Positions 26,562-62,036 are shown, counted from the stretch's first letter. The stretch is 64,000 nt of DNA from an uncultured Nitrospinaceae bacterium (GCA_964005815.1 CAXFSR010000049.1:366-64365), one strand, 5' to 3'. Numbers and translations: made by a program. The notes: generated by a model from the sequence alone, not told the origin.

Positions 26562-26584
26562 ATATTCAATCCTAAGAAAACAAA

Positions 26585-37957: not shown

Positions 37958-39049
37958 TTAAAGGTTAACCGTTATTTTTCTTTCTTTTCCTTCCACTACT
38001 TCTCCTATTATAGACGAACAAGAAGAACCAGTAGAAATCAATTTTTGTATCATCTCCTCAGACCTTGAAGGTTCTACAGCAATTATCAAACCTCCAGAAG
38101 TTTGAGCATCGTTCAGAACGGCAATCATATTTTGGTCTAATTTATCTGAATAAGAAACAAAAGAACTAGTCCACTCTCTATTTCTTTCTCCACCTCCAGC
38201 TGTACCTTGAATAGCGTGAGATAAAACTCCTTCAAAAAGAGGTATATCTGAAAATGAAATCTCAGCATCTAATCCACTTGCATCAAGTATATTGTGAAGG
38301 TGTCCTAAAAGTCCAAAACCAGTTACGTCGGTACAAGCATTGACTGGAAATTTCAACATAACTTCGCTAGCGGTTTTGTTAAGAGTTTTCATTGAATTAA
38401 TAGATTCCTCAAAAACACCTTCCTTTAATTTGTTATTTTTAGATTTAAGCACTCTTGAAATTTTTTTTATAGGACTAGTACTTTTGTTGAGATTCGTAAT
38501 TATTCCCGTTCCTATTTTCTTTGTCAAAATCAATTTGTCTCCAGGTTTCGCCCCGCTATTTAAAATCATATCTTTAGGCTCTATAACCCCAGTTACAGCA
38601 ATCCCGTACTTTGGTTCTTGATCATCTACACTATGACCACCTAAGATAACAGCCCCTGATTCGCGAACTTTCTCGGCTCCTCCGGAAAGGATCAAGCTTA
38701 ATATATCCATTCCCAAATTACACGGGAAAGACACTAAACTCAGAGCAGTAACCGGTCTAGCTCCTATCGTATAACAGTCACTAAGAGCATTTGCAGCAGC
38801 GATCTGTCCAAAATCAAAGGGGTCATCAACAATTGGAGTGAAAAAATCTACAGTCTGAACAATTGCCAAGTCTTCTCTTAATTTGTATACACCAGTGTCA
38901 TCACAAGGATTTGTCCCATAAATTAAATTTGGATCTACAAATGGTTCAAATCCTGACAGGGCTTTTCTGAGGTCCTCCGGACCAATTTTTGAACCTCAAC
39001 CACCCGCTTTAACCATACTCGTCAAAAAAACTTTTTTTTCATTCTTCAT
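37958..39049 (-). CDS. selD: selenide, water dikinase (selenophosphate synthetase) with in-frame UGA selenocysteine
   Basis: The ORF track's TTG start at 38869 is internal. The same frame stays open upstream through a TGA (38996-38998 on the minus strand) to an ATG at 39047-39049. This gives MKNEKKVFLTSMVKAGG-U-GSKIGPEDLRKAL...FVDPNL..., which aligns residue-for-residue with E. coli SelD (HGAGC17GCKISPKVLETIL...FVDPNL). The UGA sits exactly at the Cys17 position. Confidence 0.85.
38941..38995 (-). promoter_or_regulatory. candidate SECIS stem-loop immediately 3' of the selD UGA
   Basis: mRNA after the UGA reads GGUUCAAAAAUUGGUCCGGAGGACCUCAGAAAAGCCCUGUCAGGAUUUGAACC. It has an apical GGUCC-GGA-GGACC hairpin starting 13 nt after the UGA. 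The outer arms GGUUCAAA and UUUGAACC are also complementary. Confidence 0.5.
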
Positions 39050-39232: not shown

Positions 39233-40201
39233 ATGAAAATTATCATATCTGACGATTATCAAAGAGCAATCGAATCTTTAGAATGTTTTCATAAAATTGC
39301 ACATCACGATGTAGTCATTCATAACAATACTGTTTTTGAAACTGAAGATTTAGTTAAAAGATTTTATGAAGCAGAAGGAATTGTTCTCATAAGACAACGC
39401 ACAAAGATTAATGAAGAACTTCTATCAAAACTCCCAAACTTGAAAATTATCAGTGCAACTGGAGCGAATTATGCTGGTCACATAGATGTAGAAGCTTGTT
39501 CAAAATATAACGTAGCAGTTGCTGCAGGCGGAAGCGGAACACGTTCAACTTGTGAACTAGCCTGGGGACTGATAATTTCGAGCATGCGCTCTATTCCCAA
39601 AGAAGTTTCAAGCTTAAAAAATGGTGGATGGCAAAGTTCACTTGGTGAAGATTTAAATGGAAAAACAATCGGTATATATGCTTACGGAAAAATAGGAAGA
39701 CAAATGGCACAAATTGCAAATGCATTTAATATGAATGTTCTGATTTGGGGCAGAGAATCATCAATGGAAAAAGCACAAGAAGATGGATTCAACTTTGCAA
39801 AAAATAGAGAATATTTTTTTTCTACCTCAGATATTATAAGTATTCACCTGCCTTTAAAAAAAGAGACCGAAGGGATTATAACTTCAGAGGATCTTGCTCT
39901 CATGAAAACGAACTCTGTTTTCGTAAATACAAGTCGTGCAAAAATCATAAAATCAGGAGATTTAGAAAAAGCGCTCCTTGAAGGCAGGCCTGGATTTGCA
40001 TGTGTCGATGTTTATGAAAAAGAACCAATCTACAATTCGCAAAATTCATTTATCCAAATGAAAAATACATTATGTACCCCTCACTTAGGATATGTTACTA
40101 GAGGAACATATGAAAAATATTTTGGACTTGCTTTTGATCAAATAAACTCTTTTTGTGAAGGAAAACCGATTAATCTGGTAAACCCAGAAATTTTAAAATA
40201 G
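39233..40201 (+). CDS. D-isomer-specific 2-hydroxyacid dehydrogenase (NAD-binding)
   Basis: 322 aa. Rossmann GxGxxG (IGIYAYGKIGRQ) and the catalytic R/E/H pattern of the D-2-HADH family. Confidence 0.8.
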   Translation: MKIIISDDYQRAIESLECFHKIAHHDVVIHNNTVFETEDLVKRFYEAEGIVLIRQRTKINEELLSKLPNLKIISATGANYAGHIDVEACSKYNVAVAAGGSGTRSTCELAWGLIISSMRSIPKEVSSLKNGGWQSSLGEDLNGKTIGIYAYGKIGRQMAQIANAFNMNVLIWGRESSMEKAQEDGFNFAKNREYFFSTSDIISIHLPLKKETEGIITSEDLALMKTNSVFVNTSRAKIIKSGDLEKALLEGRPGFACVDVYEKEPIYNSQNSFIQMKNTLCTPHLGYVTRGTYEKYFGLAFDQINSFCEGKPINLVNPEILK

Positions 40202-40245: not shown

Positions 40246-41388
40246 GTGGATTTTGAATTTGATGAAAAACAGAAATTAATGCAAAGAACTTTAGATGATT
40301 TGCTCAAAAGAGTTTGTCCCCAAGAATATTCTATGGAATGTGACGAAAAAGGCGAAGCACCAATGGAAGCCTATAAAGAAATGGCTAAAGATGGATGGAT
40401 TGGGGTATCTACTCCTGAAGAATTTGGGGGTATGGGAGGAAATGAAATTGATATGTCTATAGTTTTAGAAACCGCGGGACATCATTATCTAGATTTGGGA
40501 ACTATGATTTTTCGGAATATCTGCTATGGATGTGATGCAATCTTAACAAGTGGAACTCCAGAACAGAAGAAAAAATTTGTAACTTCAACCGTCAAGGGAG
40601 AAACTTACTTTGCATTCAGTTTAACCGAACCCGATGCAGGCTCTGATGCTGCTTCTATTATAACCCGAGCAGATAGAGAACAGGACGTTTTCAAAATTAC
40701 TGGAACGAAAAATTATACTTCTGGCATGCCTATAGCTACAGATGTTTTAGTTGCAGTCAGAACAAACAAAAACGCAAAAAAACATGAAGGAATTACCAAC
40801 TTCATCATCCCTGCCGATAGAGAAGGTATTGAATGGAAAAAACTGCGTTTGATGGGACATAGAGCAATGGGAACATGTGAAGTTCATTACAATGGTGTCG
40901 AAGCTTCAGAAACAGAAATTTTAGGAGATCTAGATGATGGATGGAATGGATTAATGAAATACATTACAACAGAGAGATTATGTCTATCTGCAGCCAGAAC
41001 AGGTGCTGCAGCAAGCGCTCTAAAAATGGCGATAAAACACGCTCAAGAACGGCATCAATTTGGAAGACCTATTGGAAAGTTTCAAGCTGTTAGCCACATG
41101 ATTACGGAAATGCATACTCTAGTAGATACTGCTCGATTGCAAGTTTATAGATTTGCATGGCTTGCCTCCCAAGGTCATGCTGGGAGGTTAGAAGCTGCCA
41201 CCCTAAAACTATACGCTGCTGAGGCCTATAAAAAAGTTGCAGATTTAGGTGTACAAGTACTAGGAGGATATGGATATAGTGCAGAATTTCCAATGGAAAG
41301 ACATTATAGAGATGCGCGCCTTGCGACTATTGGAGCAGGTTCAAGTGAAATTCAAAGGAATATTATTGCAAAGGAATTAGGACTGTAG
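40246..41388 (+). CDS. acyl-CoA dehydrogenase
   Basis: 380-aa ACAD fold (three domains). The C-terminal GGYGYSAEFPMERHYRDARLATIGAGSSEIQ matches the ACAD signature. Confidence 0.85.
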   Translation: MDFEFDEKQKLMQRTLDDLLKRVCPQEYSMECDEKGEAPMEAYKEMAKDGWIGVSTPEEFGGMGGNEIDMSIVLETAGHHYLDLGTMIFRNICYGCDAILTSGTPEQKKKFVTSTVKGETYFAFSLTEPDAGSDAASIITRADREQDVFKITGTKNYTSGMPIATDVLVAVRTNKNAKKHEGITNFIIPADREGIEWKKLRLMGHRAMGTCEVHYNGVEASETEILGDLDDGWNGLMKYITTERLCLSAARTGAAASALKMAIKHAQERHQFGRPIGKFQAVSHMITEMHTLVDTARLQVYRFAWLASQGHAGRLEAATLKLYAAEAYKKVADLGVQVLGGYGYSAEFPMERHYRDARLATIGAGSSEIQRNIIAKELGL

Positions 41389-41426: not shown

Positions 41427-41894
41427 ATGGCTTTAGATTTAAAAGTTTTAGAAATGGATTTCCCTGAATTTGAAATTTTAGTTGAAAGAGGAAAAATAAG
41501 AGAATACGTCTCTGTTTTGGGACTGGAAGACCCTGTTCATTTTGATGTTCAGGCGGCAAAAGATGCAGGGTATAATGATCTGTTAGCACCAGCAACATTT
41601 ACTAGACAGTTCTGGCATGAAAATAACGAAAATGACCCTATGCAACATTTAGGTTATGACCCAAAAAGAAGACTGCATGGGGAACAAGAATTTGAATATT
41701 TCAAACCCTTGACTGCTGGAATGACATTGAAAGGAAAAAACGTGATCGTCTCCCACAAAGAGAAAGAAGGAAAACGGGGTGGAAAAATGACATTTGTTGT
41801 CATTGAAACTAAATTTTTAGACGAAAATGGGGAACTAGTCCAAATCGCAAGAAGGACTTTGATTGAAACCGCGGCTCCCCCTAAAAATAATTAA
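41427..41894 (+). CDS. MaoC-N-like hotdog protein (non-catalytic partner of a heterodimeric R-specific enoyl-CoA hydratase)
   Basis: 155 aa, MaoC_dehydrat_N/HadA-ChsH1-like. About 60% identical by eye to the ORF at 43992-44441. Confidence 0.7.
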   Translation: MALDLKVLEMDFPEFEILVERGKIREYVSVLGLEDPVHFDVQAAKDAGYNDLLAPATFTRQFWHENNENDPMQHLGYDPKRRLHGEQEFEYFKPLTAGMTLKGKNVIVSHKEKEGKRGGKMTFVVIETKFLDENGELVQIARRTLIETAAPPKNN

Positions 41895-41908
41895 AGGAAT
41901 ATATTAAA

Positions 41909-42334
41909 ATGACATTTGTTAAAGAAGAAATTCTCTGGGAAAAAATAAATGAAGGTGATGAAAAAGAACTCACTGTTGGACCAATTACTAGAACGGATTT
42001 AGTGAAATATGCAGGTGCTAGTGGAGACTTTAATCCTAATCATCATGACGAAATCTACTCTATACGCTCTGGTTTCGAAAAACCATTCGCACACGGAATG
42101 TTACAAGGAGGCATCCTAAGTCGTCTAATTACAGATTGGTTTGGAGTAGAAACTTTACGATATTTCAGACTTCGTTTTAGTGCACAAACCTGGCCAGGAG
42201 ATACAATAAACTGCAAAGCAAAAGTAATTAATAAAATAGAAGAAGAAAACTCCATAGAAATAGAAGCAGAAGCAACAAATGCAAGTAATGTTCTCTTAAT
42301 TAAAGCGAAAGCGAAAGTAGAAATCAAAAAATGA
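41909..42334 (+). CDS. MaoC-like (R)-specific enoyl-CoA hydratase, catalytic hotdog subunit
   Basis: 141 aa with the motif GASGDFNPNHHDE. Paralog at 43552-43995. Confidence 0.75.
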   Translation: MTFVKEEILWEKINEGDEKELTVGPITRTDLVKYAGASGDFNPNHHDEIYSIRSGFEKPFAHGMLQGGILSRLITDWFGVETLRYFRLRFSAQTWPGDTINCKAKVINKIEEENSIEIEAEATNASNVLLIKAKAKVEIKK

Positions 42335-43533
42335 AATTTTTACAAGATTACAGGATAATAGATTTAGGCCAAGTAATTGCAGGAACAATCGGAGGACTTA
42401 TTCTTGCTGATTTTGGTGCAGATGTAATAAAGGTTGAGTCCCCTAGTGGGGATATAGGCAGGAATCCTAACATAGCAGGTGTAGGAGACGTTTCGGGAAT
42501 TTTTCTTACTTTTAATAGAGGAAAAAAGGGTTTAGTCATAGACCTAAAAAATGAAGAAGGAAAAAAAGTTTTTCTTGATTTAGTTGCTGTATCTGATGCA
42601 GTTATCGCTAATTTCAGACCCGGCACACTTGATCGCCTTGGGATAGGTTTTAAAGAAATGAAAAAACACAATTCCGAAATAATTTTTGTTGACTCAAGTG
42701 GTTATGGTGAAGAAGGTCCCTGGAGAGATAAACCTGCTTTTGATGTTGTTGAGCAGGCCATGAGTGGTCATATGGCTATTACAGGAGAACCTGGTGGACC
42801 ACCATTAAGAAATGGCTCTCCAACTGCAGATATTTCTACTGCTTTATACACTGCTATTGCATGTATGGCTGGACTCCTTGGAAAACAAAAAGGAAAGGGA
42901 GCAAAACATTTTGAGGTTCCTATGTTTGATGTCCAACTATCTATGCTTGGTTACATCTCAACTATGTATCTAAATAATGGAGATATTCCTGAACCTCCAG
43001 GTAGTGCACATGAATATATGGTTCCTTATCAAGCATTTCCAACTGCTACAATCCACATTGTTTTATCTCCCAGGGAAGAAAGATTTTATAAGAAAATGTG
43101 TGAAGTGATGAATATTCCTGAATACGCAACAGACCCCCGATTTCTAACAAACGATTTACGTGTCAAAAACAAAAATGAGCTATTACCAAAACTGAAAGAA
43201 ATATTGCTTCAAAAACCTGGAGAAGAGTGGTGTAAACTATTTGAAGCTGCAGGAGTCCCTGCAGCTCCCGTCAATACTCTTGACAGAGCACTAGACAACG
43301 AACAAGTTGAGCAAAGAGGTTTGATTAAAACTTTCAAATACCCTGGATCGGGGGATGTGAGAGTGGTTGGGAACCCAATTATGGACATGGGCAGTGAAAA
43401 AAGTTCTACATGTGAACCTGCTCCTATGCACGGAGAACATACGATAGAAATTTTGAGAGAAACCCTCGGATATCAAAAAGAGAAAATTGATTCGCTTCTA
43501 GAAAATAATGTTGTTCAAACCGAAAAAAAATAA
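42331..43533 (+). CDS. family III CoA-transferase (CaiB/BaiF/Frc family)
   Basis: 400 aa with the N-terminal IIDLGQVIAGTIGGLILADFGADVIKVE signature. Start overlaps the hydratase stop. Confidence 0.85.
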   Translation: MKFLQDYRIIDLGQVIAGTIGGLILADFGADVIKVESPSGDIGRNPNIAGVGDVSGIFLTFNRGKKGLVIDLKNEEGKKVFLDLVAVSDAVIANFRPGTLDRLGIGFKEMKKHNSEIIFVDSSGYGEEGPWRDKPAFDVVEQAMSGHMAITGEPGGPPLRNGSPTADISTALYTAIACMAGLLGKQKGKGAKHFEVPMFDVQLSMLGYISTMYLNNGDIPEPPGSAHEYMVPYQAFPTATIHIVLSPREERFYKKMCEVMNIPEYATDPRFLTNDLRVKNKNELLPKLKEILLQKPGEEWCKLFEAAGVPAAPVNTLDRALDNEQVEQRGLIKTFKYPGSGDVRVVGNPIMDMGSEKSSTCEPAPMHGEHTIEILRETLGYQKEKIDSLLENNVVQTEKK

Positions 43534-43551
43534 GATTCAAAAATCAAGTTT

Positions 43552-43995
43552 TTAACCTTCGGGGACTGCAGTTAGTGTCCCCTGAACTAGCTTAATTCCG
43601 TTTTGATTGTTTACTTCTGCGTCTATTTCTATAATATTTTTACCCGATTCTTCATACTGCTTTACTACTCTACCTTTACAAGTAAGCAAATCGCCTGGCC
43701 AAGCCTGAGAGACAAAACGAATTTCAAATCTTCGAAAAGAGGTGGGACCAAGATTCTCAATTAACATTCTCGATAGATAACCTAATGAAAGAGGTCCCAT
43801 AGCAAAAACTTTCTCAAAACCACTTCTAATAGCAAAAATTTCATCATGATGATTAGGATTAAAATCACCCGAGGCTCCAGCAAAACGAACAATATCAGTA
43901 CGAGTTATAGGACCAACGTCCAGAGAAAGTTCCGTTCCAGGTGTTAATTCATTGGATTTTTTATACATTCGTGCCATAGAATCTCCTTTTGTCAA
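43552..43995 (-). CDS. MaoC-like (R)-specific enoyl-CoA hydratase, catalytic hotdog subunit (paralog)
   Basis: 147 aa. The GASGDFNPNHHDE motif is repeated here. Confidence 0.75.
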   Translation of the reverse strand: MTKGDSMARMYKKSNELTPGTELSLDVGPITRTDIVRFAGASGDFNPNHHDEIFAIRSGFEKVFAMGPLSLGYLSRMLIENLGPTSFRRFEIRFVSQAWPGDLLTCKGRVVKQYEESGKNIIEIDAEVNNQNGIKLVQGTLTAVPEG

Positions 43996-44441
43996 CCTGT
44001 TTCAATCAGAGTACGAAAATCTATTTGAACAATCTCCCCATCTTCGTCTCTAAATTCTGTTTTAATTACCACAAAAGTCATTTCACCTCCTTTTCTTCCT
44101 TTTTTTACTTCCGAGGATACAACAGAATTTTTTCCAATTAGCTTCATCCCGGCAAAAATTGGTTTGATGTATTCAAATCTGTATCCCCCTAAAAGTCTTT
44201 TTCCTAGATCAAAACCAAGATGACGCATTGGATCATTATCATCGTTGTCAAACCAAAACTGTCTCGTGAAAGTAGGAGGTGCAACCAAATTTGGATAGCC
44301 AGCCTCTTTCGCAGCATCCACATCAGTATAAACAGGATCTTTTAATCCTAAAGCTTTGGCATATTCACGAATTTTGCCTGTTTCTACAATAAATTCAAAT
44401 TCTTTGAAATTTCTGTCGAGAACTGACTTATCGAAAGGCAT
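43992..44441 (-). CDS. MaoC-N-like hotdog partner subunit (paralog)
   Basis: 149 aa with a 4-nt overlap with the downstream catalytic subunit. Strongly similar to 41427-41894. Confidence 0.7.
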   Translation of the reverse strand: MPFDKSVLDRNFKEFEFIVETGKIREYAKALGLKDPVYTDVDAAKEAGYPNLVAPPTFTRQFWFDNDDNDPMRHLGFDLGKRLLGGYRFEYIKPIFAGMKLIGKNSVVSSEVKKGRKGGEMTFVVIKTEFRDEDGEIVQIDFRTLIETG

Positions 44442-44483: not shown

Positions 44484-44924
44484 TTAATCAGTAAGATTAA
44501 CTACATTTCCATTGATTTTTAAACTACTTTCAATTTCTACAGGGTTTTTTAAAGTCCACTCCGCGAAACAACCACCTTTTGCATTTTTAGCAAGTTTTAT
44601 TACCTCTTCTGGAGAAGCATCAGAATCAATAGAAAGAAAAGAACGAAAACTATTGCAACCGCTTTCAACTGTCCCTTTTAAAACAGAACCTCTCAAGAAA
44701 AAATCATATTCAATCCTGCATTTTGCTTTCTTAAATGGTATTTTCATCATGTGCGCGTACCGCGCAACTTGGGTCAAAAGTCAAAAACCCACACCAAGTG
44801 CAAAATAATTTAACGGTTGTGGATACTCTCCGTCACCTCCTAATCTCGCTGGTTCATCACAATAAATTTCAAAATCTCCACTCTTCCCAACTTTTAGTTG
44901 TCCTTTTCCTTCTATGGTTTCCAT
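44484..44924 (-). CDS. OsmC/Ohr-family peroxiredoxin-like protein with in-frame UGA (candidate selenoprotein)
   Basis: ORF-track entries 44781-45101 and 44484-44777 are in the same frame, separated only by a TGA at 44781-44783. Read through, they give ...GDGEYPQPLNYFALGVGF-U-LLTQVARYA...AKNAKGGCFAEWTL. This resembles OsmC (NPEELIGAAHAAC59FSMAL ... KAGC125PVSQVL), with the UGA at the peroxidatic-Cys position. The start is uncertain: Met at 44924 is preferred, because the longer ORF to 45101 overlaps the SNase gene. Confidence 0.6.
44748..44768 (-). promoter_or_regulatory. candidate SECIS hairpin 3' of the OsmC-like UGA
   Basis: mRNA reads UGA-CUUUUGACCCAAG-UUGCGCGGUACGCGCAC. There is a GC-only stem GCGC(G)/CGCGC with a GGUAC/GUA loop about 14 nt after the UGA. 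This is a conspicuous GC block in an AT-rich gene. Confidence 0.4.
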
Positions 44925-45043
44925 CTCTGCCACTATTGTATTTACGTATCCTTGAGCGGGATGCTCTGGTTGATCGATTACCCTCTTTCCTGGGACATTA
45001 CTTTGATCTGCTGCAGTTGTCGGCTTCAAAACGTGAACTCCTT

Positions 45044-45553
45044 TTAAAAATTTAAGAAATCTTTTATCTTCTTTTTTCTTCTTAATTTCCTCCATTTCCA
45101 AGGAGGAAGAGGATTACTATGACTCCAAACTCCTATCTTTTTTTTTCGCGCTTTCGATTCTGCTTCTGATAAACTTAAATTATTTTTAGCGTATTTTTTG
45201 TACCACCAACAAAGCCCTTCAGAAACAAGTACTAATCCAAGATCAATATTCCCTTGAAAAAATACTTTTCCTATAACTCTGCCATAACGATCATACCCTT
45301 TACCCACAACTTTTACCTTCTTTTTAAAAATCAATTCTTTCACTCTTCTTTTTGCACTTACTCCACCCAATTGTCTTATCTCAGGACAATCGATTCCAGA
45401 TAATCTTATTTTAAATTTCTTAAAATTTTTCCTAAGATGAATTGTGTCTCCGTCTGGCACAAAAGATACCTCACCAAAAAAAGTTTCAGAAAATAGAATA
45501 CTAGGTGTGAAGAAAAAGAAAATCAAAAAAACAAAATATAGAAAGAATCTCAT
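45044..45553 (-). CDS. secreted thermonuclease (SNase-like) family protein
   Basis: 169 aa with an N-terminal signal peptide. DGDTIHLR...RLSGIDCPE...DRYGR matches staphylococcal-nuclease fold catalytic residues. The C-terminus is Lys/Arg-rich. Confidence 0.7.
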   Translation of the reverse strand: MRFFLYFVFLIFFFFTPSILFSETFFGEVSFVPDGDTIHLRKNFKKFKIRLSGIDCPEIRQLGGVSAKRRVKELIFKKKVKVVGKGYDRYGRVIGKVFFQGNIDLGLVLVSEGLCWWYKKYAKNNLSLSEAESKARKKKIGVWSHSNPLPPWKWRKLRRKKKIKDFLNF

Positions 45554-46228: not shown

Positions 46229-47941
46229 ATGGGTATAGAACTGCAAAAAGCTTCATGTGATGTTTTAATCATAGGCGGCGGTGTCGCAGGTATGCTAGCA
46301 GCTATTGAAGCTAAAAAAGAAGGTGTTGATGTTATTCTGTTAACAAAAGCAACTTTTCCTTCTGGTAGTTCGTCCATGGCACGCGGCGGATTTTCCAGTG
46401 CACTAGGACACCAAGACAGTAGAGATAACCCGAGAGTACACTGGAAAGATACAATAGAGGGGGGTTATGAAATAAACAATCCCAGACTAGTTGAAGTGAT
46501 GACTGAAGAAGTTATCGAACGTACTTTTACTATTGATTCTTGGGGCTTGGGATTAGTTAAAAAAGAAAACGACAAATACGATCAACGAAAAAGTGCAGAT
46601 GATACATACGCTCGTTTTCTACATTGTGCAGGAATGATCGGAAAACCTTTGATGTCTTCTTTGTCAAAAAAAGTTACAGATTCAGGAATACAAGTTGAAA
46701 GTAATGTTTTTATTATTGATCTAATCTTAGACAAAGACGGGGTTGTATCTGGAGCTTGGGGAATAAAACATAAAGAAGATATTGCCATGCTCATTTCTAG
46801 TAAGAGCACCGTACTTTGTTCAGGAGGAGCACCACAATTACACGAAGTCAACGACTCTCCACCTCAGGTAACCGGAGATGGATACGCCATGGCCTATAGA
46901 GCAGGTGCAGAACTTATTGATATGGAAATGATTGACTATCAGCTTATGACTGGATGGCCTAAAAAGATGATAGGTTATAACCCTTATGCAACTGGATTCA
47001 TTAGAATTGGTTCACATTTAAAGAATAAAGATGGCTTCAGATTTATGCAAAAATGGAACCCAAATGCACCAGATCTAAATTATGAACAAACAACACGTTC
47101 GCTTTTTAATAGAGGCGTAGGGTTTGAGATTTTTGAAGGTAGAGGAACAGAACATGGAACTGTATATATGGATGCATCACATTGCATGAATATAGATCAT
47201 GGAGGAGAAATAGAGATTATTAAAAGAGCTTTTAGGAATGGTGGCATTGATATTACTAAAGAACCTATGGAAGTTTGTAGTGGACCGCATACTTTTTTAG
47301 GAGGAATACGAATTGACGAATTTGGAAGAACCAATGTGCCAGGTTTATATGCAGGCGGAGAGGCAGGTGGAGGAATTCATGGTTCAAATCGTCTTTCAGG
47401 AGCTGCACTTGCAGACAGTTTTGTCTTTGGATCACGTTCAGGAAAATTTGCAGCACAAGACTCAAAAAAGAATCATTCTAAAAATGGTATAGAAATAAAT
47501 GTGTCAGATAAACTTTCTTCACTATTTGACAGAATTAAAGATTCTGGGAATATGAGTGCTAAAGAATTCCGTCTTTCTCTTCAAAAGAATGTTTTCGATA
47601 ATCTGGGCCAAATTAGATCAGAAGAAAGATTGCAAGTCGGACTCGAAAAATTGGATTCCCTCAAAAAGAATTCCGTTTCTATAGAAAAGGACAAAAAGAG
47701 ACCTACGTCTAAAATAAATGAAATAAAAAGTGTCATTGAAACTGAAAATTTAATAGATGTTGCAAAAATGCTTGGAACAGCAGCATTAGAAAGGGAAGAA
47801 AGTCGGGGAGGCCACTATAGATATGACTTTCCAGAAACAGATAACGAAAACTGGAAAGCAAATATAATTGTCTCTAAAAATATTGCAATCGATGAAATTA
47901 AAACGAAAATTAATCAGATTTCAAAAAACGGTTCAAGATAA
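46229..47941 (+). CDS. FAD-binding oxidoreductase of the SdhA/FrdA/AprA (FAD_binding_2) family, stand-alone
   Basis: 570 aa. N-terminal DVLIIGGGVAGMLAAIEA dinucleotide fold and the C-terminal ESRGGHYRYDFPETD motif. No adjacent Fe-S or membrane subunits. Confidence 0.75.
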   Translation: MGIELQKASCDVLIIGGGVAGMLAAIEAKKEGVDVILLTKATFPSGSSSMARGGFSSALGHQDSRDNPRVHWKDTIEGGYEINNPRLVEVMTEEVIERTFTIDSWGLGLVKKENDKYDQRKSADDTYARFLHCAGMIGKPLMSSLSKKVTDSGIQVESNVFIIDLILDKDGVVSGAWGIKHKEDIAMLISSKSTVLCSGGAPQLHEVNDSPPQVTGDGYAMAYRAGAELIDMEMIDYQLMTGWPKKMIGYNPYATGFIRIGSHLKNKDGFRFMQKWNPNAPDLNYEQTTRSLFNRGVGFEIFEGRGTEHGTVYMDASHCMNIDHGGEIEIIKRAFRNGGIDITKEPMEVCSGPHTFLGGIRIDEFGRTNVPGLYAGGEAGGGIHGSNRLSGAALADSFVFGSRSGKFAAQDSKKNHSKNGIEINVSDKLSSLFDRIKDSGNMSAKEFRLSLQKNVFDNLGQIRSEERLQVGLEKLDSLKKNSVSIEKDKKRPTSKINEIKSVIETENLIDVAKMLGTAALEREESRGGHYRYDFPETDNENWKANIIVSKNIAIDEIKTKINQISKNGSR

Positions 47942-47952
47942 ATTTTTTTAGC

Positions 47953-47978
47953 AAAATAGGATTGTTACCTATTTTTTT
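47953..47978. terminator. putative bidirectional rho-independent terminator
   Basis: AAAATAGG-attgtta-CCTATTTT is an 8-bp perfect stem followed by a T-run (TTTTTTTGA) on the plus strand. It overlaps the stop of the convergent minus-strand gene. Confidence 0.35.
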
Positions 47979-49041
47979 GAATATACTTACAAAGAACATC
48001 CCCAACTTCCTTTGTTTTTAAATTCCCGCCAAGATCTCCCGTAACCGATTTCTCTCTAATTGCGTTTTTCACAGCACTTAGAATAATGTCTGCCGAAGCA
48101 TCATAACCCAATGAACCAAGAAGAATACGAGCAGTAAGAGTTGTTGCGAATGGATTGGCAATACCCTTCAATGCTATATCTGGTGCAGTTCCATGAACAG
48201 GCTCAAACATAGAAACTTTCCCAGGGTGTATACAACCTGAAGGAGCCATACCAACTCCTCCTACAAGACCTGCACACACATCACTTAAAATATCCCCATA
48301 CATATTATTAGTAACAATTACAGAAAACTCTTCAGGATGTTGGATCAGATCCATACACAAAGTATCTATAAAATAATGTTCCCCTTCCACTTCAGGGAAC
48401 TCATCGTTAATTTGCCAGAAAACTCTCTGCCATAAATCATGTGCATGGACTAGAGAACCAAATTTGTCAGCCATCGTTACTTTTGGATAGTTATGTTTTT
48501 TTGCATATTCAAATGCATATCTACATATCCTTTCTACTCCCTTAAAAGTGTTCACATCCTCCTGAATTGCTACTTCATCTTTTGTTCCCTTTTTGAAATT
48601 TCCTCCAAGCCTAACCATCACTCCCTCAGTATTTTCTCGCATTACTGTCAAATCTATAGGAACTTCTTTTCGAAGAGGACTATAACTAGGATCAAATAAA
48701 AAAGCTGGCCGTAGGTTTACGTAAAGATCTAACTCTAAACGAAGTGCCCTAAGAAGATCTCTACAATTTACGTCTGGAGGAATACGAGGATCTAAACCTG
48801 CACTACCAAATAAAATAGCATCATGTTTACTTGCAAGATCGTGAACTAACGCGGGAACGTCCTCTGGAAGAGGCGAACCTTCATCAAGATATCTCAATGC
48901 TCCATAGTTATATACTGTAGGATCTACTTGAACTTCATCTGCTAGGGCTGCCTCTTTCATTACTTCTGTCACAACAGGCAAAATATCATGACCAACTCCG
49001 TCACCCAAGATGACTGCTAATGAAAGCTTTGTCTCATTCAT
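47965..49041 (-). CDS. isocitrate/isopropylmalate dehydrogenase-family enzyme (tartrate/D-malate dehydrogenase-like)
   Basis: 358 aa. NMYGDILSD substrate/metal motif and the N-terminal AVILGDGVGHDI. Confidence 0.8.
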   Translation of the reverse strand: MNETKLSLAVILGDGVGHDILPVVTEVMKEAALADEVQVDPTVYNYGALRYLDEGSPLPEDVPALVHDLASKHDAILFGSAGLDPRIPPDVNCRDLLRALRLELDLYVNLRPAFLFDPSYSPLRKEVPIDLTVMRENTEGVMVRLGGNFKKGTKDEVAIQEDVNTFKGVERICRYAFEYAKKHNYPKVTMADKFGSLVHAHDLWQRVFWQINDEFPEVEGEHYFIDTLCMDLIQHPEEFSVIVTNNMYGDILSDVCAGLVGGVGMAPSGCIHPGKVSMFEPVHGTAPDIALKGIANPFATTLTARILLGSLGYDASADIILSAVKNAIREKSVTGDLGGNLKTKEVGDVLCKYIQKNR

Positions 49042-49050
49042 TTTTTCCCT

Positions 49051-50226
49051 CTAAAGATGTTTGACAACTTTCATTCTTTGAACTGCATCACCTGCTAAAT
49101 GAGTCCATACAGCACCGTCTCTTTGCAATTTTTCTGCACCAACATCTTTCATCACGCCCTCTCCACCATGGATATCAACATTTAAACAGGTAACCCTTTG
49201 TATTACATCAGAGGAAAAATTCATGCAAAGTATTCCATGCCTAGGGTCACGTTTATTTCCAAGTTCACTATCACAAGCAGTCCTTAACACATAAGATCTC
49301 AGAGCTTCTGTAAGCATATGCATCTCCGCAAGTTTCAGTTGAATCGCCTGATGTTCAATAATATATTTCCCCCCCTGCCATCTTGTCCTAGCATGATTCA
49401 TCGCCATATCACATGCAGCTTGACAGACTCCTGTGGCATTAGCAGCTAACTCCAAATCATTAAATTCAGAGGTATCCCCTCGCCTAACTTTAATACCTTC
49501 ATTAACCCCCCCAATCATATTCGCATGCGGAACACGTGCATTTTCAAAAATCAGCTCCGCGTTTTGGTAAAAACGCCAACCAGTTTTATCGTATACCTTT
49601 CCAACTCTAAAACCAGGGGTATCAGTTGGAACCAAAAAAAGAGTCGAACCATCAACCATGTTGACTGATGGATCTGTTCTAGCATCTATAAAGAAAAGTT
49701 TTGCAACACTTCCATTTGCTATATAACGCTTTGTTCCATTTAAAATCCATTCGTCTCCATCTCTCTCGGCTTTCATCATCCAACCGGTCGAGGGATCATC
49801 AAGTTGCAATCGATTATCTGAGCCTGCAGCAGGCTCAGTACCACCTTTCCCTAACAAATAAGTATCGTCAGCAATAAATGGCTTCAGGAATCGTTCCTTC
49901 TGATCTTCTGTACAAATAGCCGAAATTAAATGACTCCACTTCCAACATTGACTAAATGTCTTTGCAATAGCACTATCACCACGTGCAAGTTCTTCCATTA
50001 CTAGAACCTGAGTAACGAAATCTATCCCATGACCACCCCATTCTTTAGCAACTACTGCGGTTCTAAAACCTAATGCAGAACCCTTCTTTATAATCTCCCA
50101 ATCAAACGTTTCTCTAGGATCTAGTATCTGGTCTCTTTCCAGAGAGATGGGCTTTATTTCTTCCTCAGCAAATTTCCTTGCTTTCATCTGCCAGGAAATC
50201 TGTTCTTCATTGAGTTTAAAATCCAT
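49051..50226 (-). CDS. acyl-CoA dehydrogenase family protein
   Basis: 391 aa with an ACAD three-domain pattern. Second ACAD in the island. Confidence 0.8.
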   Translation of the reverse strand: MDFKLNEEQISWQMKARKFAEEEIKPISLERDQILDPRETFDWEIIKKGSALGFRTAVVAKEWGGHGIDFVTQVLVMEELARGDSAIAKTFSQCWKWSHLISAICTEDQKERFLKPFIADDTYLLGKGGTEPAAGSDNRLQLDDPSTGWMMKAERDGDEWILNGTKRYIANGSVAKLFFIDARTDPSVNMVDGSTLFLVPTDTPGFRVGKVYDKTGWRFYQNAELIFENARVPHANMIGGVNEGIKVRRGDTSEFNDLELAANATGVCQAACDMAMNHARTRWQGGKYIIEHQAIQLKLAEMHMLTEALRSYVLRTACDSELGNKRDPRHGILCMNFSSDVIQRVTCLNVDIHGGEGVMKDVGAEKLQRDGAVWTHLAGDAVQRMKVVKHL

Positions 50227-50262
50227 TATTAAGAACTCCTATTTTAATTAACAATTTTGAAT

Positions 50263-51852
50263 TTAATTTTCTAAAAATGGCTTAGGTACTTGTGTCCACC
50301 ATTTATCAATATTTAAGTCTTCACAAATTGCATTCGCAGCATTATAACCAGGTGCACCATTGAGTCCACCTCCATGACAACTAGAACCACATAAATAAAA
50401 TTTTTCTAATGGAGTCCTCATTCCAGAAAGTAAAGGATGTGGACGATTAACACCCAGTTGATCCGAAGTATAAGCTCCCATTCTAACCGCGCCCTCCACA
50501 ATATTCTTGTTCCTAATATTTAAATCATTAGGAGAATATAATTTTGCAGCACGAATAATATTACCTTTTAAATTAGGAGCATATTCACTCCATATGTCAA
50601 TTAATTGTTGTGTCACCGATTCCTTAATTTCATTCCATTTTTCAGGAGAATCACCGCCAATTCTATAGGGAGCGCCAGGCCACCAGAATGCAACATGGCC
50701 ATCTTCCGGAGCGTAACTTGAATCAAATAAACTGTTACATGCACCGTTTCCCATGGGCATTGAGGGAAATTTTCCACTTCGTCTTTCCTCAGTATTTTTT
50801 GAGACTTCCTCATCTGTATCAGCACCGAAAATTACATTAAAAGATTTTGCTACATCAGGATCATATTTCTCTGCGAAATATTTCGGTGCTTCACTGAGAG
50901 CTAGGTGTAATGTCATCAACGAATGAAATCCCCAATCCCAATTATTCATTTTTTCATTTACTTCCTCTGGGAAAGCGTCCTCTCCTGCAATACGAATTGA
51001 AGAAGGAGCATTTAAACCACTTGCAATAAATGAACTTGCAGAAATCTTTGAACCATTTTCAAGAACTACTCCTCCCGCATTTCCATTTTCACGATAAACT
51101 TCCTCTACCTTGCAATCTCTAAAAACTTCACCGCCATAGGATTTAATTAATTTTTCTAAAGATTTTGGTAATTCAAGAGCACCCCCAACAGAAAGACCTA
51201 AAGTAGTTTGAGATGAAAAAAGACTAGGCAAAAACATTCCTGTTCCTGGTTCATCTTCTACAGTGATTGCGTGAGCAAACAATTTAAATAATGTTCTCAA
51301 TTTAGGATGCTCAAAATAGGTATCTATTGCCTCTCCAATACTCATTTTTGCGAATGAGAGCAACTCTTTCCCTTTTTCCCCCGTAATCCTATTTCCAATT
51401 TCTTCAGGAGATAGTGGAGCATGAAAAAGAAAACTTCGTAAAAGAGGTCCTAATTCTACTGCATATCGCTCGAATAAATAATTATAGGATTCAGCATCGT
51501 TTTTTGAGATTCGAGAAATAGAAGAAACGCTTTTTTCTACATCTCTATGAAGAACTACAGACGTGCCATCTCTATATAGTGCAGCATGTTGAACTTCTGG
51601 TGTTACCCATTTAAATCCATACTTAGATAATTCCAAATCATTAACGATTGGAAAATCTTCTAATCCAATAAAAAAATTAGCATGCATATTAGACTTGTAG
51701 CCAGGAAGGAGGAATTCTTCTGTAGAAGCGGCACCACCTATTTCTGATTCTGATTCAAAAACAGCAACCTTAAGACCACATTTTGCCAAGTAAGCAGCAC
51801 AAACTAGACTGTTGTGACCAGCTCCAATTAAAATACCGTCATATGTATCCAC
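50263..51852 (-). CDS. phytoene desaturase-family NAD(P)/FAD-dependent oxidoreductase (CrtI-like)
   Basis: 529 aa. N-terminal DGILIGAGHNSLVCAAYLAKCGLKVAVFE is an FAD Rossmann fold of CrtI-family topology. Confidence 0.75.
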   Translation of the reverse strand: MDTYDGILIGAGHNSLVCAAYLAKCGLKVAVFESESEIGGAASTEEFLLPGYKSNMHANFFIGLEDFPIVNDLELSKYGFKWVTPEVQHAALYRDGTSVVLHRDVEKSVSSISRISKNDAESYNYLFERYAVELGPLLRSFLFHAPLSPEEIGNRITGEKGKELLSFAKMSIGEAIDTYFEHPKLRTLFKLFAHAITVEDEPGTGMFLPSLFSSQTTLGLSVGGALELPKSLEKLIKSYGGEVFRDCKVEEVYRENGNAGGVVLENGSKISASSFIASGLNAPSSIRIAGEDAFPEEVNEKMNNWDWGFHSLMTLHLALSEAPKYFAEKYDPDVAKSFNVIFGADTDEEVSKNTEERRSGKFPSMPMGNGACNSLFDSSYAPEDGHVAFWWPGAPYRIGGDSPEKWNEIKESVTQQLIDIWSEYAPNLKGNIIRAAKLYSPNDLNIRNKNIVEGAVRMGAYTSDQLGVNRPHPLLSGMRTPLEKFYLCGSSCHGGGLNGAPGYNAANAICEDLNIDKWWTQVPKPFLEN

Positions 51853-51914
51853 TTTAACCCCCCATTTGGTTAAATTAGAACAAATACAGTCGAAATCTAA
51901 AAAAAATTATCAAG

Positions 51915-53039
51915 CTATTTCGTTAATTCAGATTGTAATACTTCAGGTTCAATTGGGAGAGCTAGCGGCGCCTCCATTTTGGCAGATAAATCACAAGCCA
52001 TTGTTAACATTAAATTCCTATGTCCTTCCTCGGCAGTACAATGAGGGGTGTCTACTCCTGCGTATATTCTTGCAAGCCAAGAATTTGTTTCTTCACGCAT
52101 GGGACCCCAGAACTGCCCCCTTGAAATATCGCCAGGTGGATAACTAGCTAAGAAGTTAACATGTCTTTCGTCACCACGATGGGCAACCCAAGGCTTTTCT
52201 GTAGCCATAACCATATCTCTATGTGTATCGTCAATAGTAAGAACTCCACCTGTTCCAACTATTCCAATTTCTAAACTATAAGTTGAAGCAGGCCATACAA
52301 CTGGCAAGCCCCAACTACAAGACATGCTCCATAAAGTACCATCCTCAAAAGTGAAAATACTGTAGGTAGAGTCCTGAGTCCCCAGACCAGTTAGAGCCTT
52401 CGCAACCGAACGAGCATATATTTCAGTTGGTTTCTTACCTTCACCTAAGACCCAAAGTATAACGTCTAATGCGTGAGTTCCAGAAATCACCATTGGAGTT
52501 AATAAAGAACGATCCTCGTTTGCTTCTAAGCGCGTTATCCCAACCATTCTATTCAAAAATGCCCTAGTTGTTGCAGATGTTATATCTCCTAATTGACCGG
52601 AGGCAACTTGCTCTCTAGCAACTAACCATTTTCTCCTGAACCTTTGTGTATAACCAACAACTAGATCTATATTTGCGTCTTGTGCTGCTTTAACTATTTT
52701 TGCAGATTCAACTACATTAGTCGCCAGAGGCTTTTCTGCGATGATTCTATGTCCATGTTCTATAGATTCAAAAAGTGTTTCTGCATGTACGTTTTCATCC
52801 GTAGCTAGAACGGCAGAATTAACTTCTGACCTTTTTAATAATTCCTTATAATCAGTCGTAAAAAAGTCTGCATTCAAATCTTCAGCTAGCTGTTTACCTT
52901 TTTTCTCATCAATATCACAACAGCCGATCCACTCTGTACCAGGATATTCTAATGCACAACGCCCTCTAATTCTTCCAACACGACCACAACCTACAATTGC
53001 TAATCCAATTGGAGTCTTTGTTTTATCATTCTCTGGCAC
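51915..53039 (-). CDS. Gfo/Idh/MocA-family oxidoreductase
   Basis: 374 aa with an N-terminal GxGxxG NAD(P) fold (IGLAIVGCGRVGRIRG) and a C-terminal GFO_IDH_MocA_C region. Confidence 0.8.
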   Translation of the reverse strand: MPENDKTKTPIGLAIVGCGRVGRIRGRCALEYPGTEWIGCCDIDEKKGKQLAEDLNADFFTTDYKELLKRSEVNSAVLATDENVHAETLFESIEHGHRIIAEKPLATNVVESAKIVKAAQDANIDLVVGYTQRFRRKWLVAREQVASGQLGDITSATTRAFLNRMVGITRLEANEDRSLLTPMVISGTHALDVILWVLGEGKKPTEIYARSVAKALTGLGTQDSTYSIFTFEDGTLWSMSCSWGLPVVWPASTYSLEIGIVGTGGVLTIDDTHRDMVMATEKPWVAHRGDERHVNFLASYPPGDISRGQFWGPMREETNSWLARIYAGVDTPHCTAEEGHRNLMLTMACDLSAKMEAPLALPIEPEVLQSELTK

Positions 53040-54919: not shown

Positions 54920-56110
54920 ATGTCGGAAAACAACTTACCATTATCTAGATTTAAAGTTCTCGATTTAACTACCGCAAGATCTGGTCCAACCGCCGTAAAA
55001 CAACTCGCAGACTGGGGTGCAGATGTTATTAAGATCGAACCTTCAAGAAAAATTATTGCTTCTGGCGGTGGATTATCCAGAGATAGACATGGATATGAAA
55101 TGCAAAACCTTCATAGAAACAAACGAGGGATGACATTAAATCTAAAAAGTGAAGAAGGCAGAGAGATTTTTTATAACCTTGTCAAAAATTCAGACGTAGT
55201 CATAGAAAATTATCGACCAGATGTCAAAAATCGTCTGAAAATAGATTATGAAACTTTAAAATCTATAAACAAAAAAATAATTCTAGGGAGTATCTCAGGT
55301 TTTGGTCAATTTGGTCCGTATTCTAGTCGACCGGGTTTAGACCAGATTGCCCAAGGGTTAAGTGGATTGATGTCCGTAACTGGCATGCCTGAAAATGGAC
55401 CAACAAGAGTAGGTGTTCCAATTGGAGACCTCACCGCAGGAATGATGCTAGCACAAGGTGTACTTCTAGCTTTGCTAGAAAGAGAGAAATCGGGTGAAGG
55501 TCAATGGGTACATACTTCCCTTCTAGAAGGTCTAATTCAAATAATGGATTTACAAGCCGCTCGTTTCTTAATGGCAGGAGAAGTTCCTAAACAAGTTGGG
55601 AACCTACATCCAGTTTATCTACCAACTGGAGTTTTTCCAACTTCTGATTCTTCTATGAATATACAATCTCCCGGTCAAGTTTTTTGGAAAAGATTAAGTG
55701 CTGCCTTAGGAAAACCCGAACTGTTTGAAGATGAAGATTTCAAAACTCCAGAAGACCGATGGAATAATAAAGATAGATTAAACAAAGAAATTTCAGAATT
55801 GACAATGCAGAAAACTACCGCGGAATGGGTTGAAATCCTAAATGATGCCGGAGTGCCTTGTGGCCCAATTCACAGTGTAAATGAGACATTTGCAGATCCG
55901 CAAGTTCAGCAATTAAATATGAATCCTGAACTCGAGCACCCTGTGATCGGAAAGATAAATGTCGTTGGACAGGCAATTAAATTAAGTAGAACTCCGCAAA
56001 AAATGAGATTTACTACACCGGAAGTTGGGGAGCATAATGATCAAATTCTATCTGAGCTAAATTACAGTGAAGAGGACATAGAAAAATTCAAACAAGAGGA
56101 TATCATCTAA
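54920..56110 (+). CDS. family III CoA-transferase (CaiB/BaiF/Frc family)
   Basis: 396 aa. FKVLDLTTARSGPTAVKQLADWGADVIKIE N-terminal signature. Immediately downstream of the TPP-enzyme gene. Confidence 0.85.
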   Translation: MSENNLPLSRFKVLDLTTARSGPTAVKQLADWGADVIKIEPSRKIIASGGGLSRDRHGYEMQNLHRNKRGMTLNLKSEEGREIFYNLVKNSDVVIENYRPDVKNRLKIDYETLKSINKKIILGSISGFGQFGPYSSRPGLDQIAQGLSGLMSVTGMPENGPTRVGVPIGDLTAGMMLAQGVLLALLEREKSGEGQWVHTSLLEGLIQIMDLQAARFLMAGEVPKQVGNLHPVYLPTGVFPTSDSSMNIQSPGQVFWKRLSAALGKPELFEDEDFKTPEDRWNNKDRLNKEISELTMQKTTAEWVEILNDAGVPCGPIHSVNETFADPQVQQLNMNPELEHPVIGKINVVGQAIKLSRTPQKMRFTTPEVGEHNDQILSELNYSEEDIEKFKQEDII

Positions 56111-56885: not shown

Positions 56886-56897
56886 TATTTTAATTTT

Positions 56898-62011: not shown

Positions 62012-62036
62012 TAATAATCCCTCATTACTAAAAAAT

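Follow-up and report, generated by a model that had tools for sequence, protein, structure and literature searches.

What would a bacterium do with two split hydratases placed around one CoA-transferase gene, and did the second arise from the first on the spot? The question is raised by a 64-kb stretch of DNA (hereafter, the window) from an uncultured Nitrospinaceae bacterium, in which two pairs of small hotdog-fold genes, A1-B1 on the plus strand and A2-B2 on the minus strand, flank a single family III CoA-transferase gene (CoAT1). A preliminary description of this locus, made from the sequence, had read it as an inverted duplication of a split hotdog hydratase, resembling HadAB, ChsH1-H2 or split mesaconyl-/itaconyl-CoA hydratases, and had suggested, from the adjacent acyl-CoA dehydrogenase (ACAD) and the transferase, a CoA-transferase-initiated route for a branched or dicarboxylic acid. 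The interpretation that we favour, and to which we would give about an even chance when taken as a whole, is that the pairs are two anciently diverged, independently functional HadAB-type (R)-specific enoyl-CoA hydratases that would share CoAT1 and act on dicarboxylate substrates.

The open reading frames (ORFs) of the window were listed and their proteins were then searched against Pfam, NCBIfam and the PDB sequences. The genes of the locus are:

39233..40201, plus strand: D-isomer-specific 2-hydroxyacid dehydrogenase (PF02826 and PF00389), first gene of the conserved operon
40246..41388, plus strand: ACAD1, acyl-CoA dehydrogenase (PF00441/PF02771/PF02770)
41427..41894, plus strand: A1, HadA-like hotdog subunit lacking the catalytic dyad, type 1 (PF13452, MaoC N-terminal-like, E 2e-26)
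41909..42334, plus strand: B1, HadB-like MaoC subunit with the dyad, type 1 (PF01575, E 5e-18)
42331..43533, plus strand: CoAT1, family III CoA-transferase (PF02515, E 1e-108)
43552..43977, minus strand: B2, HadB-like MaoC subunit with the dyad, type 2 (PF01575, E 1e-15; alternative TTG start at 43995)
43992..44441, minus strand: A2, HadA-like hotdog subunit lacking the dyad, type 2 (PF13452, E 4e-27)
44484..45101, minus strand: OsmC-like gene with an in-frame TGA at 44780-44778 (weak PF02566 match)

An inert and a catalytic subunit in each pair

The two A subunits share 61% identity over 149 aa without gaps (E 8e-68) and the two B subunits 52% over 130 aa (E 1e-49), values far beyond chance that bear out the paralogy claimed in the preliminary description. 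All four are short proteins (141-155 aa) with PF13452 or PF01575 as the sole domain. In NCBIfam, the top profile is HadA for the A subunits (A1 74 bits and A2 69 bits, for a cutoff of 180) and HadB for the B subunits (B1 57 bits and B2 43 bits, for a cutoff of 203; NF040624 and NF010246 being the HadAB models), and none of the seven locus genes from the dehydrogenase to A2 reaches an NCBIfam equivalog cutoff. Among the PDB sequences, the A subunits retrieve fused MaoC dehydratases (5i7n, 4v12) and HadA, while the B subunits retrieve HadB at 5e-13 and ChsH1/ChsH2 at about 3e-5 only; the itaconyl-CoA hydratase PaIch and the Chloroflexus structure 4e3e are absent from the PDB sequence matches of both.

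The structural comparison, based on AlphaFold models of single chains (pLDDT 88.6 for B1 and 87.0 for A1), leads to the same relatives. The B1 model has HadB (4rlj_B, TM-score 0.84, 30% identity) as its top fold match, with further matches to PhaJ (TM 0.83-0.86), ChsH1 (0.79) and, at rank 50 and 16% identity, the Mch-like 4e3e of Chloroflexus. The A1 model is closest to HadA (4rlw_A, TM 0.78, 26% identity), followed by ChsH2 (TM about 0.75) and by PaIch (TM 0.63-0.65, ranks 35-42). Across the sequence and structure comparisons, HadA and HadB share 26-31% identity with A and B, and ChsH1 and ChsH2 12-22%. HadA and HadB thus come top by profile as well as by structure (0.78 and 0.84), ahead of ChsH1/H2, PaIch and the Mch-like double hotdog, in agreement with the earlier reading of a split HadAB-type hotdog hydratase.

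The distribution of the catalytic residues distinguishes the two subunits. The motif GDFNPNHHD, present in B1 and B2, aligns its D40 and H45 with the HadB motif GDLNPIHWD, and both residues are invariant among 17 B sequences. In the A subunits, Leu replaces the catalytic Asp, and the His position is occupied by His in A1 and by Tyr in A2. In the models, the central helix is long in B (residues 63-78) and short and broken in A, a pattern that separates the catalytic from the binding subunit in the heteromeric MaoC hydratases ChsH1/ChsH2 (PMC11321319). At the level of sequence and predicted fold, each pair can therefore be shown to combine one putatively inert A subunit and one B subunit with a predicted catalytic Asp/His dyad, from which we infer an A-B heterodimer with one active site per heteromer. 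The pairs are probably HadAB-like heteromeric hydratases acting on CoA esters, and their substrates would be linked to CoA rather than to the acyl carrier protein (ACP).

The gene layout agrees with such a pairing. The ORFs of A1, B1, the transferase, B2 (as 43552-43995) and A2 lie exactly where the preliminary description had placed them, and Pfam returned the domains that it had assigned, PF13452 in A1/A2, PF01575 in B1/B2 and PF02515 in the transferase, as well as the adjacent ACAD at 40246-41388. For B2, the ATG at 43977 is a more likely start than 43995, since it has an AAGGAG ribosome-binding site, gives a protein of 141 aa as in B1 and leaves a 14-nt A-to-B spacer as in pair 1; counted from this ATG, the spacer is 14 nt in both pairs. 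The stop codon of B1 overlaps the start of the transferase (ATGA), so that B1 and CoAT1 are translationally coupled, and the convergent stop codons of CoAT1 and B2 are 18 nt apart. A promoter and terminator scan of the locus, including this 18-nt convergent junction, gave counts below the shuffle expectation and was uninformative. The OsmC-like gene lies on the same strand as A2, 42 nt upstream of it, and this order is repeated in two related metagenome contigs (L089 and L090). It may be co-transcribed with A2; whether it belongs to the system is uncertain.

Age and distribution of the two pairs

The term "inverted duplication" describes the layout of the genes correctly, but not their DNA, as the best inverted repeat between the pairs is 27 nt at 85%, located at homologous codons. 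At the nucleotide level, A1 and A2 are 66% and B1 and B2 56% identical, and dS between the paralogs is saturated (1.7-1.8). When compared with their orthologs, dN/dS is 0.02-0.05 for A1, 0.04-0.08 for B1, 0.05-0.09 for A2 and 0.14-0.19 for B2, the highest in the locus. These values, below 0.2 for all four genes, indicate that both pairs are kept under purifying selection. Near-identical copies of which one had decayed, an outcome that the preliminary description had considered, are not what we find: the copies have diverged, both pairs are intact and the motif is kept. We also observed that the B subunits diverge faster than the A subunits and the flanking genes; in L023, a related locus of the genome collection, B1 is 77% identical, in comparison with 95% for A1, 94% for the ACAD and 92% for the CoA-transferase.

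Separate neighbour-joining trees for A and for B are congruent. In the concatenated A+B tree (neighbour joining on 281 columns, with 500 bootstraps scored as unrooted bipartitions), the pair 2 clade is recovered with 100% bootstrap and branches with the pair of the L088 contig with 98%, while pair 1 groups with all the single-copy Nitrospinota and Tectomicrobia orthologs with 87%. The monophyly of pair 1 and pair 2, the signature of a lineage-specific duplication, is found in 0.4% of the bootstraps. Together with the saturated dS, these supports show that the pairs are ancient paralogous types. A local duplication event, as previously proposed, is not borne out, the nearest relative of pair 2 lying on a different contig, and recent inverted duplication or gene conversion can be rejected from the lack of a meaningful inverted repeat, the saturated dS and the 0.4% monophyly. 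The side-by-side pairs found only in the lineage of the window could reflect either retention of both types with loss elsewhere or the acquisition of type 2. The types differ by fixed substitutions at five positions in A and two in B. The latter include AHGM (type 1) versus AMGP (type 2), beside the invariant Gly63 of B, a site that we take, from MaoC enzymology, to lie near the oxyanion-hole region.

The B family is large. A threshold of E ≤ 1e-10 retrieves 1,966 proteins, and the species-representative genomes contain at least 577 loci, distributed among Nitrospinota, Tectomicrobia, Binatia, Methylomirabilota, Actinomycetota, Myxococcota and delta-type metagenome-assembled genomes (MAGs). 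The closest relatives include a locus of an uncultured Nitrospinaceae MAG (L008), 96% identical to B1, and a Tara Oceans protein nearly identical to B2, which identifies the source of the window as a marine member of the Nitrospinaceae. The neighbourhoods were surveyed by tblastn of the window proteins on 87 loci, of which 16 (L008-L023) form the Nitrospinota/Tectomicrobia clade; this is the comparison across genomes that the preliminary description had called for. In 74 of the 80 species-level loci of the genome collection, the gene immediately preceding B is A; of the six other loci, four are cut by the end of a contig. Within the Nitrospinota/Tectomicrobia clade, the order A-B-CoA-transferase is present in all 16 loci, with orthologs of ACAD1 directly upstream of A-B in 14. 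The 2-hydroxyacid dehydrogenase accompanies the operon in 11 of the 16; the contigs of the others end early, except for L022, and in L021 the dehydrogenase directly precedes A-B-CoA-transferase without the ACAD. The operon of pair 1 (2-hydroxyacid dehydrogenase, ACAD, A, B and CoA-transferase) is thus conserved in Nitrospinota and Tectomicrobia. The second, convergent pair is confined to the closest relatives, namely two genome-collection loci (L008 and L023) and four metagenome contigs (L001, L002, L089 and L090).

For the wider A-B family, the flanking ORFs of 81 loci were clustered without bias; spurious antisense ORFs of high-GC loci contaminated part of the outcome (cluster C1), and only the clear families were used. 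An ACAD occurs in 23 of the 81 loci, in comparison with 14 for this transferase and 10 for the dehydrogenase. Many of these wider-family pairs are accompanied by just an ACAD and a short-chain dehydrogenase/reductase (SDR), and the A-B pairs of Actinomycetota adjoin housekeeping genes, e.g., LigA and PknB-like kinases. Two loci from MAGs labelled as Deltaproteobacteria or Margulisiibacteriota (L033 and L038) show an ACAD followed directly by a B-type gene with no detectable A between them; some lineages may have a B subunit that functions without a partner of its own.

Candidate substrates and pathways

The indications regarding the substrate come from the transferase and from two deep-branching relatives. 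CoAT1 matches PF02515 along its full length (profile positions 1-366; 363.9 bits for a gathering score of 23.3), and its top PDB matches are human SUGCT (1e-72), YfdE and Rv3272, the last being a family III enzyme of Mycobacterium tuberculosis with itaconate:succinyl-CoA transferase activity (PMC11789021). It satisfies none of the substrate-specific equivalogs (succinate-glutarate, oxalate, mesaconate, formyl or carnitine), the succinate-glutarate, oxalate and mesaconate models scoring 242, 238 and 230 bits for cutoffs of 750, 522 and 700, respectively. For ACAD1, the best NCBIfam models are AcrC, CaiA-like and 3-sulfinopropanoyl-CoA desulfinase-like, all far under cutoff, and the best PDB match is CarC (1e-59), together with many ordinary ACADs. 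The 2-hydroxyacid dehydrogenase has 3gg9, an uncharacterised PGDH-related structure, as its best PDB match (6e-89), and no NCBIfam equivalog.

In L022, the order is ACAD (53% identical to ACAD1), A, B, CoA-transferase (52%), a CitE-like HpcH/HpaI lyase and then an Asp/Glu-racemase-family gene, and the locus also holds a TAXI-type TRAP binding protein and a fused DctQM permease. L088 reads cupin, Amidohydro_2, a second CoA-transferase, TAXI, DctM, CitE-like lyase, A, B and a CoA-transferase fragment. Both lyases match citE and RipC/Ccl (the itaconate-pathway lyase) best, under the cutoffs. The terminal CoA-transferase fragment of L088, which follows a type-2 pair, shares 74% identity with CoAT1, a value equal to that of genuine Nitrospinota orthologs. 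Type-1 and type-2 pairs are thus both found directly upstream of the same transferase lineage, which argues that in the window both serve the CoAT1 between them. The itaconate and methylsuccinate operons of Pseudomonas aeruginosa (PA0878-PA0886, in which the isomerase is of the MmgE/PrpD type) and Cupriavidus necator (operon 1) encode Ict, Ich, Ccl, Mcd, an isomerase and TRAP (PMC13491972), and the gene sets of L022 and L088 match the P. aeruginosa operon function for function. Duplicate hydratases and transferases for C5-dicarboxylates have been described in M. tuberculosis and C. necator (PMC13491972, PMC11789021), and Rv3389c, of the hydratase-2 family, has both itaconyl-CoA hydratase and FAS-II-type (type II fatty acid synthase) hydratase activities (PMC11789021).

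By analogy with these systems, a dicarboxylate such as methylsuccinate or itaconate would be the substrate class, a proposal on which we stand at about evens. CoAT1 would activate a short, possibly branched dicarboxylate (methylsuccinate, itaconate, mesaconate or succinate) from a CoA-thioester donor, ACAD1 would desaturate the saturated ester to the enoyl-CoA, and the A-B enzyme would hydrate the latter to a 3-hydroxy-dicarboxylyl-CoA (citramalyl-, beta-methylmalyl- or malyl-type). The hydrated product could then be cleaved by a CitE-like lyase encoded elsewhere or, alternatively, be de-esterified by CoAT1 and oxidised by the 2-hydroxyacid dehydrogenase. Pairs 1 and 2 would most likely handle different enoyl-CoA isomers or substrates, and a division of labour between two related substrates is plausible. 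That a CoA-transferase initiates a dicarboxylate route here, and not beta-oxidation, as proposed earlier, is borne out indirectly, by the kinship of the transferase with SUGCT, YfdE and Rv3272, by the absence of thiolase, Etf and 3-hydroxyacyl-CoA dehydrogenase genes from the conserved operon and by the lyase and TAXI-TRAP genes of L022 and L088.

Several observations weigh against this interpretation. Every NCBIfam match is far under its cutoff, CoAT1 receives similar scores from the glutarate, oxalate and mesaconate models, and the methylsuccinyl-CoA dehydrogenase 6es9 matches ACAD1 at only 4e-43, in comparison with 1e-59 for CarC. Tblastn detected no CitE-like lyase in the 64-kb window, and there is none in the operons of the main Nitrospinota clade; the link to a lyase comes from two deep-branching relatives, L022 and L088. 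The genes for SelD, MsrA and M20 upstream of the operon are conserved too, and the linkage of the dehydrogenase could therefore be partly inherited synteny. In addition, the contexts of the wider A-B family are heterogeneous, and the phylogeny is a neighbour-joining reconstruction on 281 columns rather than a maximum-likelihood one.

The same genes could also encode PhaJ-like (R)-hydratases for ordinary or branched monocarboxylic acyl-CoA, working in partial beta-oxidation or polyhydroxyalkanoate supply, or on a sulfur-containing acid (3,3'-thiodipropionyl-CoA or MMPA-type), with the CoA-transferase standing in for an acyl-CoA synthetase. The generic similarities of ACAD1, the PhaJ-like fold of B1 and the many wider-family pairs found with an ACAD and an SDR alone would agree with this, and the hydratases Ech-20/Ech-30 of Variovorax paradoxus offer a possible parallel for a thioether (PMC6370202). 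Nevertheless, we consider it unlikely: the conserved operon holds no thiolase or 3-hydroxyacyl-CoA dehydrogenase gene, the closest relatives of the transferase are dicarboxylate enzymes, and the CitE-like lyase and TAXI-TRAP genes of L022 and L088 are typical of dicarboxylate catabolism. In the opposite direction, the operon could form a closed, reductive CoA-transferase loop comparable to those of the Cai, Fld and Had systems, in which a 2-oxo-dicarboxylate would be reduced, the hydroxy acid would receive CoA from the end product, A-B would dehydrate it and the ACAD would act as an enoyl-CoA reductase (e.g., oxaloacetate to malate, malyl-CoA, fumaryl-CoA and succinyl-CoA). The conservation of the 2-hydroxyacid dehydrogenase with the operon, including the ACAD-less arrangement of L021, the absence of a lyase from the main clade operons and the enoyl-CoA reductases at the top of the ACAD1 matches (AcrC and CaiA by NCBIfam, CarC by PDB) point this way. 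These ACAD matches are, however, far under cutoff and marginally better than those to ordinary dehydrogenases, neither Etf nor other low-potential electron-donor genes were found in the window (which also holds no thiolase), and L022 and L088 point to catabolic uptake and a lyase; the direction is unreadable from sequence, and we hold a loop of this kind to be quite unlikely.

The pairs might also not be independent of each other, either as an obligate mixed complex A1B1A2B2 or through partner swapping (A1B2 and A2B1), as HadB does with HadA, HadC and HadD. Indeed, HadB can associate with different inert subunits, which determine its chain-length specificity (PMC11321319), a single transferase lies between the two pairs and is presumably served by both, and the B subunits evolve faster than the A subunits. 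Most genomes nevertheless have type 1 only, and L088 has type 2 only beside the same transferase lineage, which suggests that each type works alone; in addition, the congruent A and B trees and the identical 14-nt spacers favour cognate pairing. Mixed assemblies are therefore very unlikely, and so is the hetero-tetramer raised in the preliminary description, if taken as obligate. As for true membership of known systems, be it the (3R)-hydroxyacyl-ACP dehydratases HadAB of an FAS-II-like system or the steroid side-chain hydratases ChsH1/ChsH2, HadA and HadB are the top profile and structure matches and ChsH1/ChsH2 are detectable. However, the scores fall well short (74 versus 180 and 57 versus 203 bits), the neighbours are an ACAD and a CoA-transferase rather than ACP or ketosynthase genes, with no ACP or KAS gene in the window, and the similarity to ChsH is weak (E 3e-5, 12-22% identity), with no DUF35 domain, Ltp2-type aldolase, thiolase-like or steroid gene found in the window. 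Context and scores together lead us to reject both memberships, which we regard as highly improbable, and no profile search assigned the pairs to a well-defined pathway, the steroid side-chain one mentioned in the preliminary description included.

Returning to dicarboxylate hydratases around a shared CoAT1, a bolder version would make the lyase-less Nitrospinota operon a self-contained CoA-shuttle, in which the transferase would recycle CoA from the hydrated product to the next substrate and a saturated dicarboxylate and a 2-oxo acid would be interconverted, by way of enoyl- and hydroxyacyl-CoA, at no ATP cost. Examples would be methylsuccinate to beta-methylmalate and 2-oxobutyrate or, in reverse, oxaloacetate to malyl-CoA, fumaryl-CoA and succinyl-CoA. 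We offer this shuttle, and the examples with it, as a long shot. The phylum Nitrospinota fixes CO2 by the reductive tricarboxylic acid cycle; if the shuttle existed and ran in reverse, it would amount to a soluble, CoA-level bypass of fumarate reductase. In such a shuttle, the second pair would provide a branch for a second isomer.

Other genes of the window deserve mention. The SelD (selenophosphate synthetase) gene at 37958-39049 on the minus strand, of which the ORF listing shows only a truncated 303-aa part, has an in-frame TGA (38998-38996) exactly at the catalytic Cys/Sec position (MKNEKKVFLTSMVKAGG-TGA-GSKIGPEDL), and a GC-rich palindromic hairpin, GGTCC-TCC-GGACC (38971-38983), begins 13 nt downstream of it. 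The organism thus decodes selenocysteine. Similarly, the TGA of the OsmC-like gene (…FALGVGF-U-LLTQVARYA…) has a hairpin, GCGCG-GUA-CGCGC, 18 nt downstream, and both are conserved in L001, L002, L008 and L090; the gene is thus probably a selenoprotein gene and not a pseudogene, OsmC-like selenoproteins being a described family (PMC1088965).

A gene cluster at 46229-50226 (extending to 53039) is conserved in the close relatives L001, L002, L008 and L023. At 46229-47941 it encodes an orphan fumarate-reductase/TfrA-like flavoprotein without an iron-sulfur subunit, followed at 47965-49041 by a non-canonical relative of isopropylmalate/tartrate dehydrogenases (336 bits, under the cutoff of 393) and at 49051-50226 by a second ACAD; an amine-oxidase-like flavoprotein and an oxidoreductase of the GFO/IDH/MocA type also belong to it. 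The cluster (46229-53039) could represent further dicarboxylate or hydroxy-acid metabolism tied to the hydratases. The gene of a thiamine diphosphate (ThDP)-dependent enzyme (53194-54867) is directly followed by that of another family III CoA-transferase, the second of the window (54920-56110, 30% identical to CoAT1), a duo resembling oxalyl-CoA decarboxylase and formyl-CoA transferase, or a 2-hydroxyacyl-CoA lyase pair, and a second ThDP enzyme is found at 59480-61168. Two ORFs for beta-keto acid cleavage enzymes (BKACE), 264 and 217 aa long and with N-terminal partial profile matches, are arranged in tandem at 61217-62690 on the minus strand, near an SDR and a 3-hydroxyisobutyrate-dehydrogenase-like gene (56115-57791). 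On the other side of the operon, the minus strand encodes a 990-aa molybdopterin oxidoreductase with a fused N-terminal 4Fe-4S dicluster domain (19720-22692) and a hydantoinase/oxoprolinase A+B pair (24957-28585); a Hydantoinase_B gene also adjoins the operon of L022.

Comparison with known systems

All the components of the locus come from known families, and heteromeric MaoC hydratases are themselves known (HadAB, HadBC, HadBD and ChsH1/ChsH2). What appears to be undescribed is a HadAB-type split hydratase within a CoA-transferase/ACAD operon of dicarboxylate type (with lyase and TRAP genes in relatives), the presence of two ancient paralogous pairs around one transferase, and the conserved lyase-less Nitrospinota operon with a 2-hydroxyacid dehydrogenase; we found no literature linking MaoC hydratases to Nitrospinota. 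If the dicarboxylate assignment holds, this would be the first HadAB-type split hydratase placed in dicarboxylyl-CoA metabolism, and would represent a non-orthologous replacement of the fused Ich/Mch enzymes in itaconate, mesaconate or methylsuccinate pathways, within an A-B family that is large and unnamed. It would also add organic-acid metabolism to the marine Nitrospinaceae, which are better known as chemolithoautotrophic nitrite oxidisers. The locus is a reasonable target for enzymology, rather than a surprising system.

The overall logic of a family III CoA-transferase with a hydratase or dehydratase and an ACAD-type oxidoreductase is shared with the carnitine system CaiABD and with FldAHBC and HadA-LdhA, the Fld and Had systems adding a D-2-hydroxyacid dehydrogenase. 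Dehydration in these systems is carried out by crotonase-type enzymes (CaiD) or by radical [4Fe-4S] enzymes instead of MaoC heteromers, and, in contrast to these loops, the window holds no detectable Etf genes. Growth of Variovorax paradoxus on 3,3'-thiodipropionate requires both members of a pair of adjacent enoyl-CoA hydratase genes, Ech-20 and Ech-30; Ech-20 is stabilised by the CoA ester, and a possible MaoC-like Ech-20/Ech-30 heteromer has been raised by the authors (PMC6370202). The resemblance is that of an adjacent hydratase gene pair for a dicarboxylic acid; the neighbours differ, being crotonases, CaiD and IlvX.

The itaconate and methylsuccinate operons of P. aeruginosa, C. necator and M. 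tuberculosis (Rv2498c/Rv2499c/Rv3389c/Rv3272) share with the locus the combination of a family III transferase, an ACAD and a MaoC-superfamily hydratase, to which L022 and L088 add a CitE-like lyase and TRAP, and L022 a putative isomerase; in addition, Rv3272 is among the solved relatives of CoAT1. In contrast, Ich and Mch enzymes described so far consist of a fused double hotdog or form homodimers, whereas the genes of the locus are split, and the similarity is distant (TM 0.65 for PaIch; rank 50 and 16% identity for 4e3e). The window and the main Nitrospinota clade also differ from the itaconate operons in having a 2-hydroxyacid dehydrogenase and no lyase, and none of the cutoffs for RipC/Ccl, mesaconate transferase or any other equivalog is reached.

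ChsH1-ChsH2 is a MaoC hydratase made of unlike subunits, as proposed here for the pairs; it uses CoA thioesters, has a single active site in each heterodimer and contains a binding subunit with a short helix (PMC11321319). In structure, its similarity to A and B is TM 0.75-0.79. The locus nevertheless lacks the DUF35 domain, the aldolase partner and the steroid genes of that system, and the sequence similarity is much weaker than to HadAB. The closest comparison is with HadAB, HadBC and HadBD of mycobacterial FAS-II, in which adjacent genes likewise encode a hotdog subunit that is inert and a MaoC subunit that carries the catalytic Asp/His dyad, and which provide a precedent for alternative subunits tuning specificity (PMC11321319). 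The locus differs from HadAB in scoring far under the equivalog cutoffs and in its acyl-CoA context, with an ACAD and a CoA-transferase, instead of FAS-II and ACP. Moreover, both subunits, and not the inert partner alone, are duplicated at the Nitrospinaceae locus, which, if our interpretation is correct, would make it a natural test case of how a heteromeric hotdog enzyme gains new specificities when its two subunits are duplicated together and the CoA-transferase remains shared.

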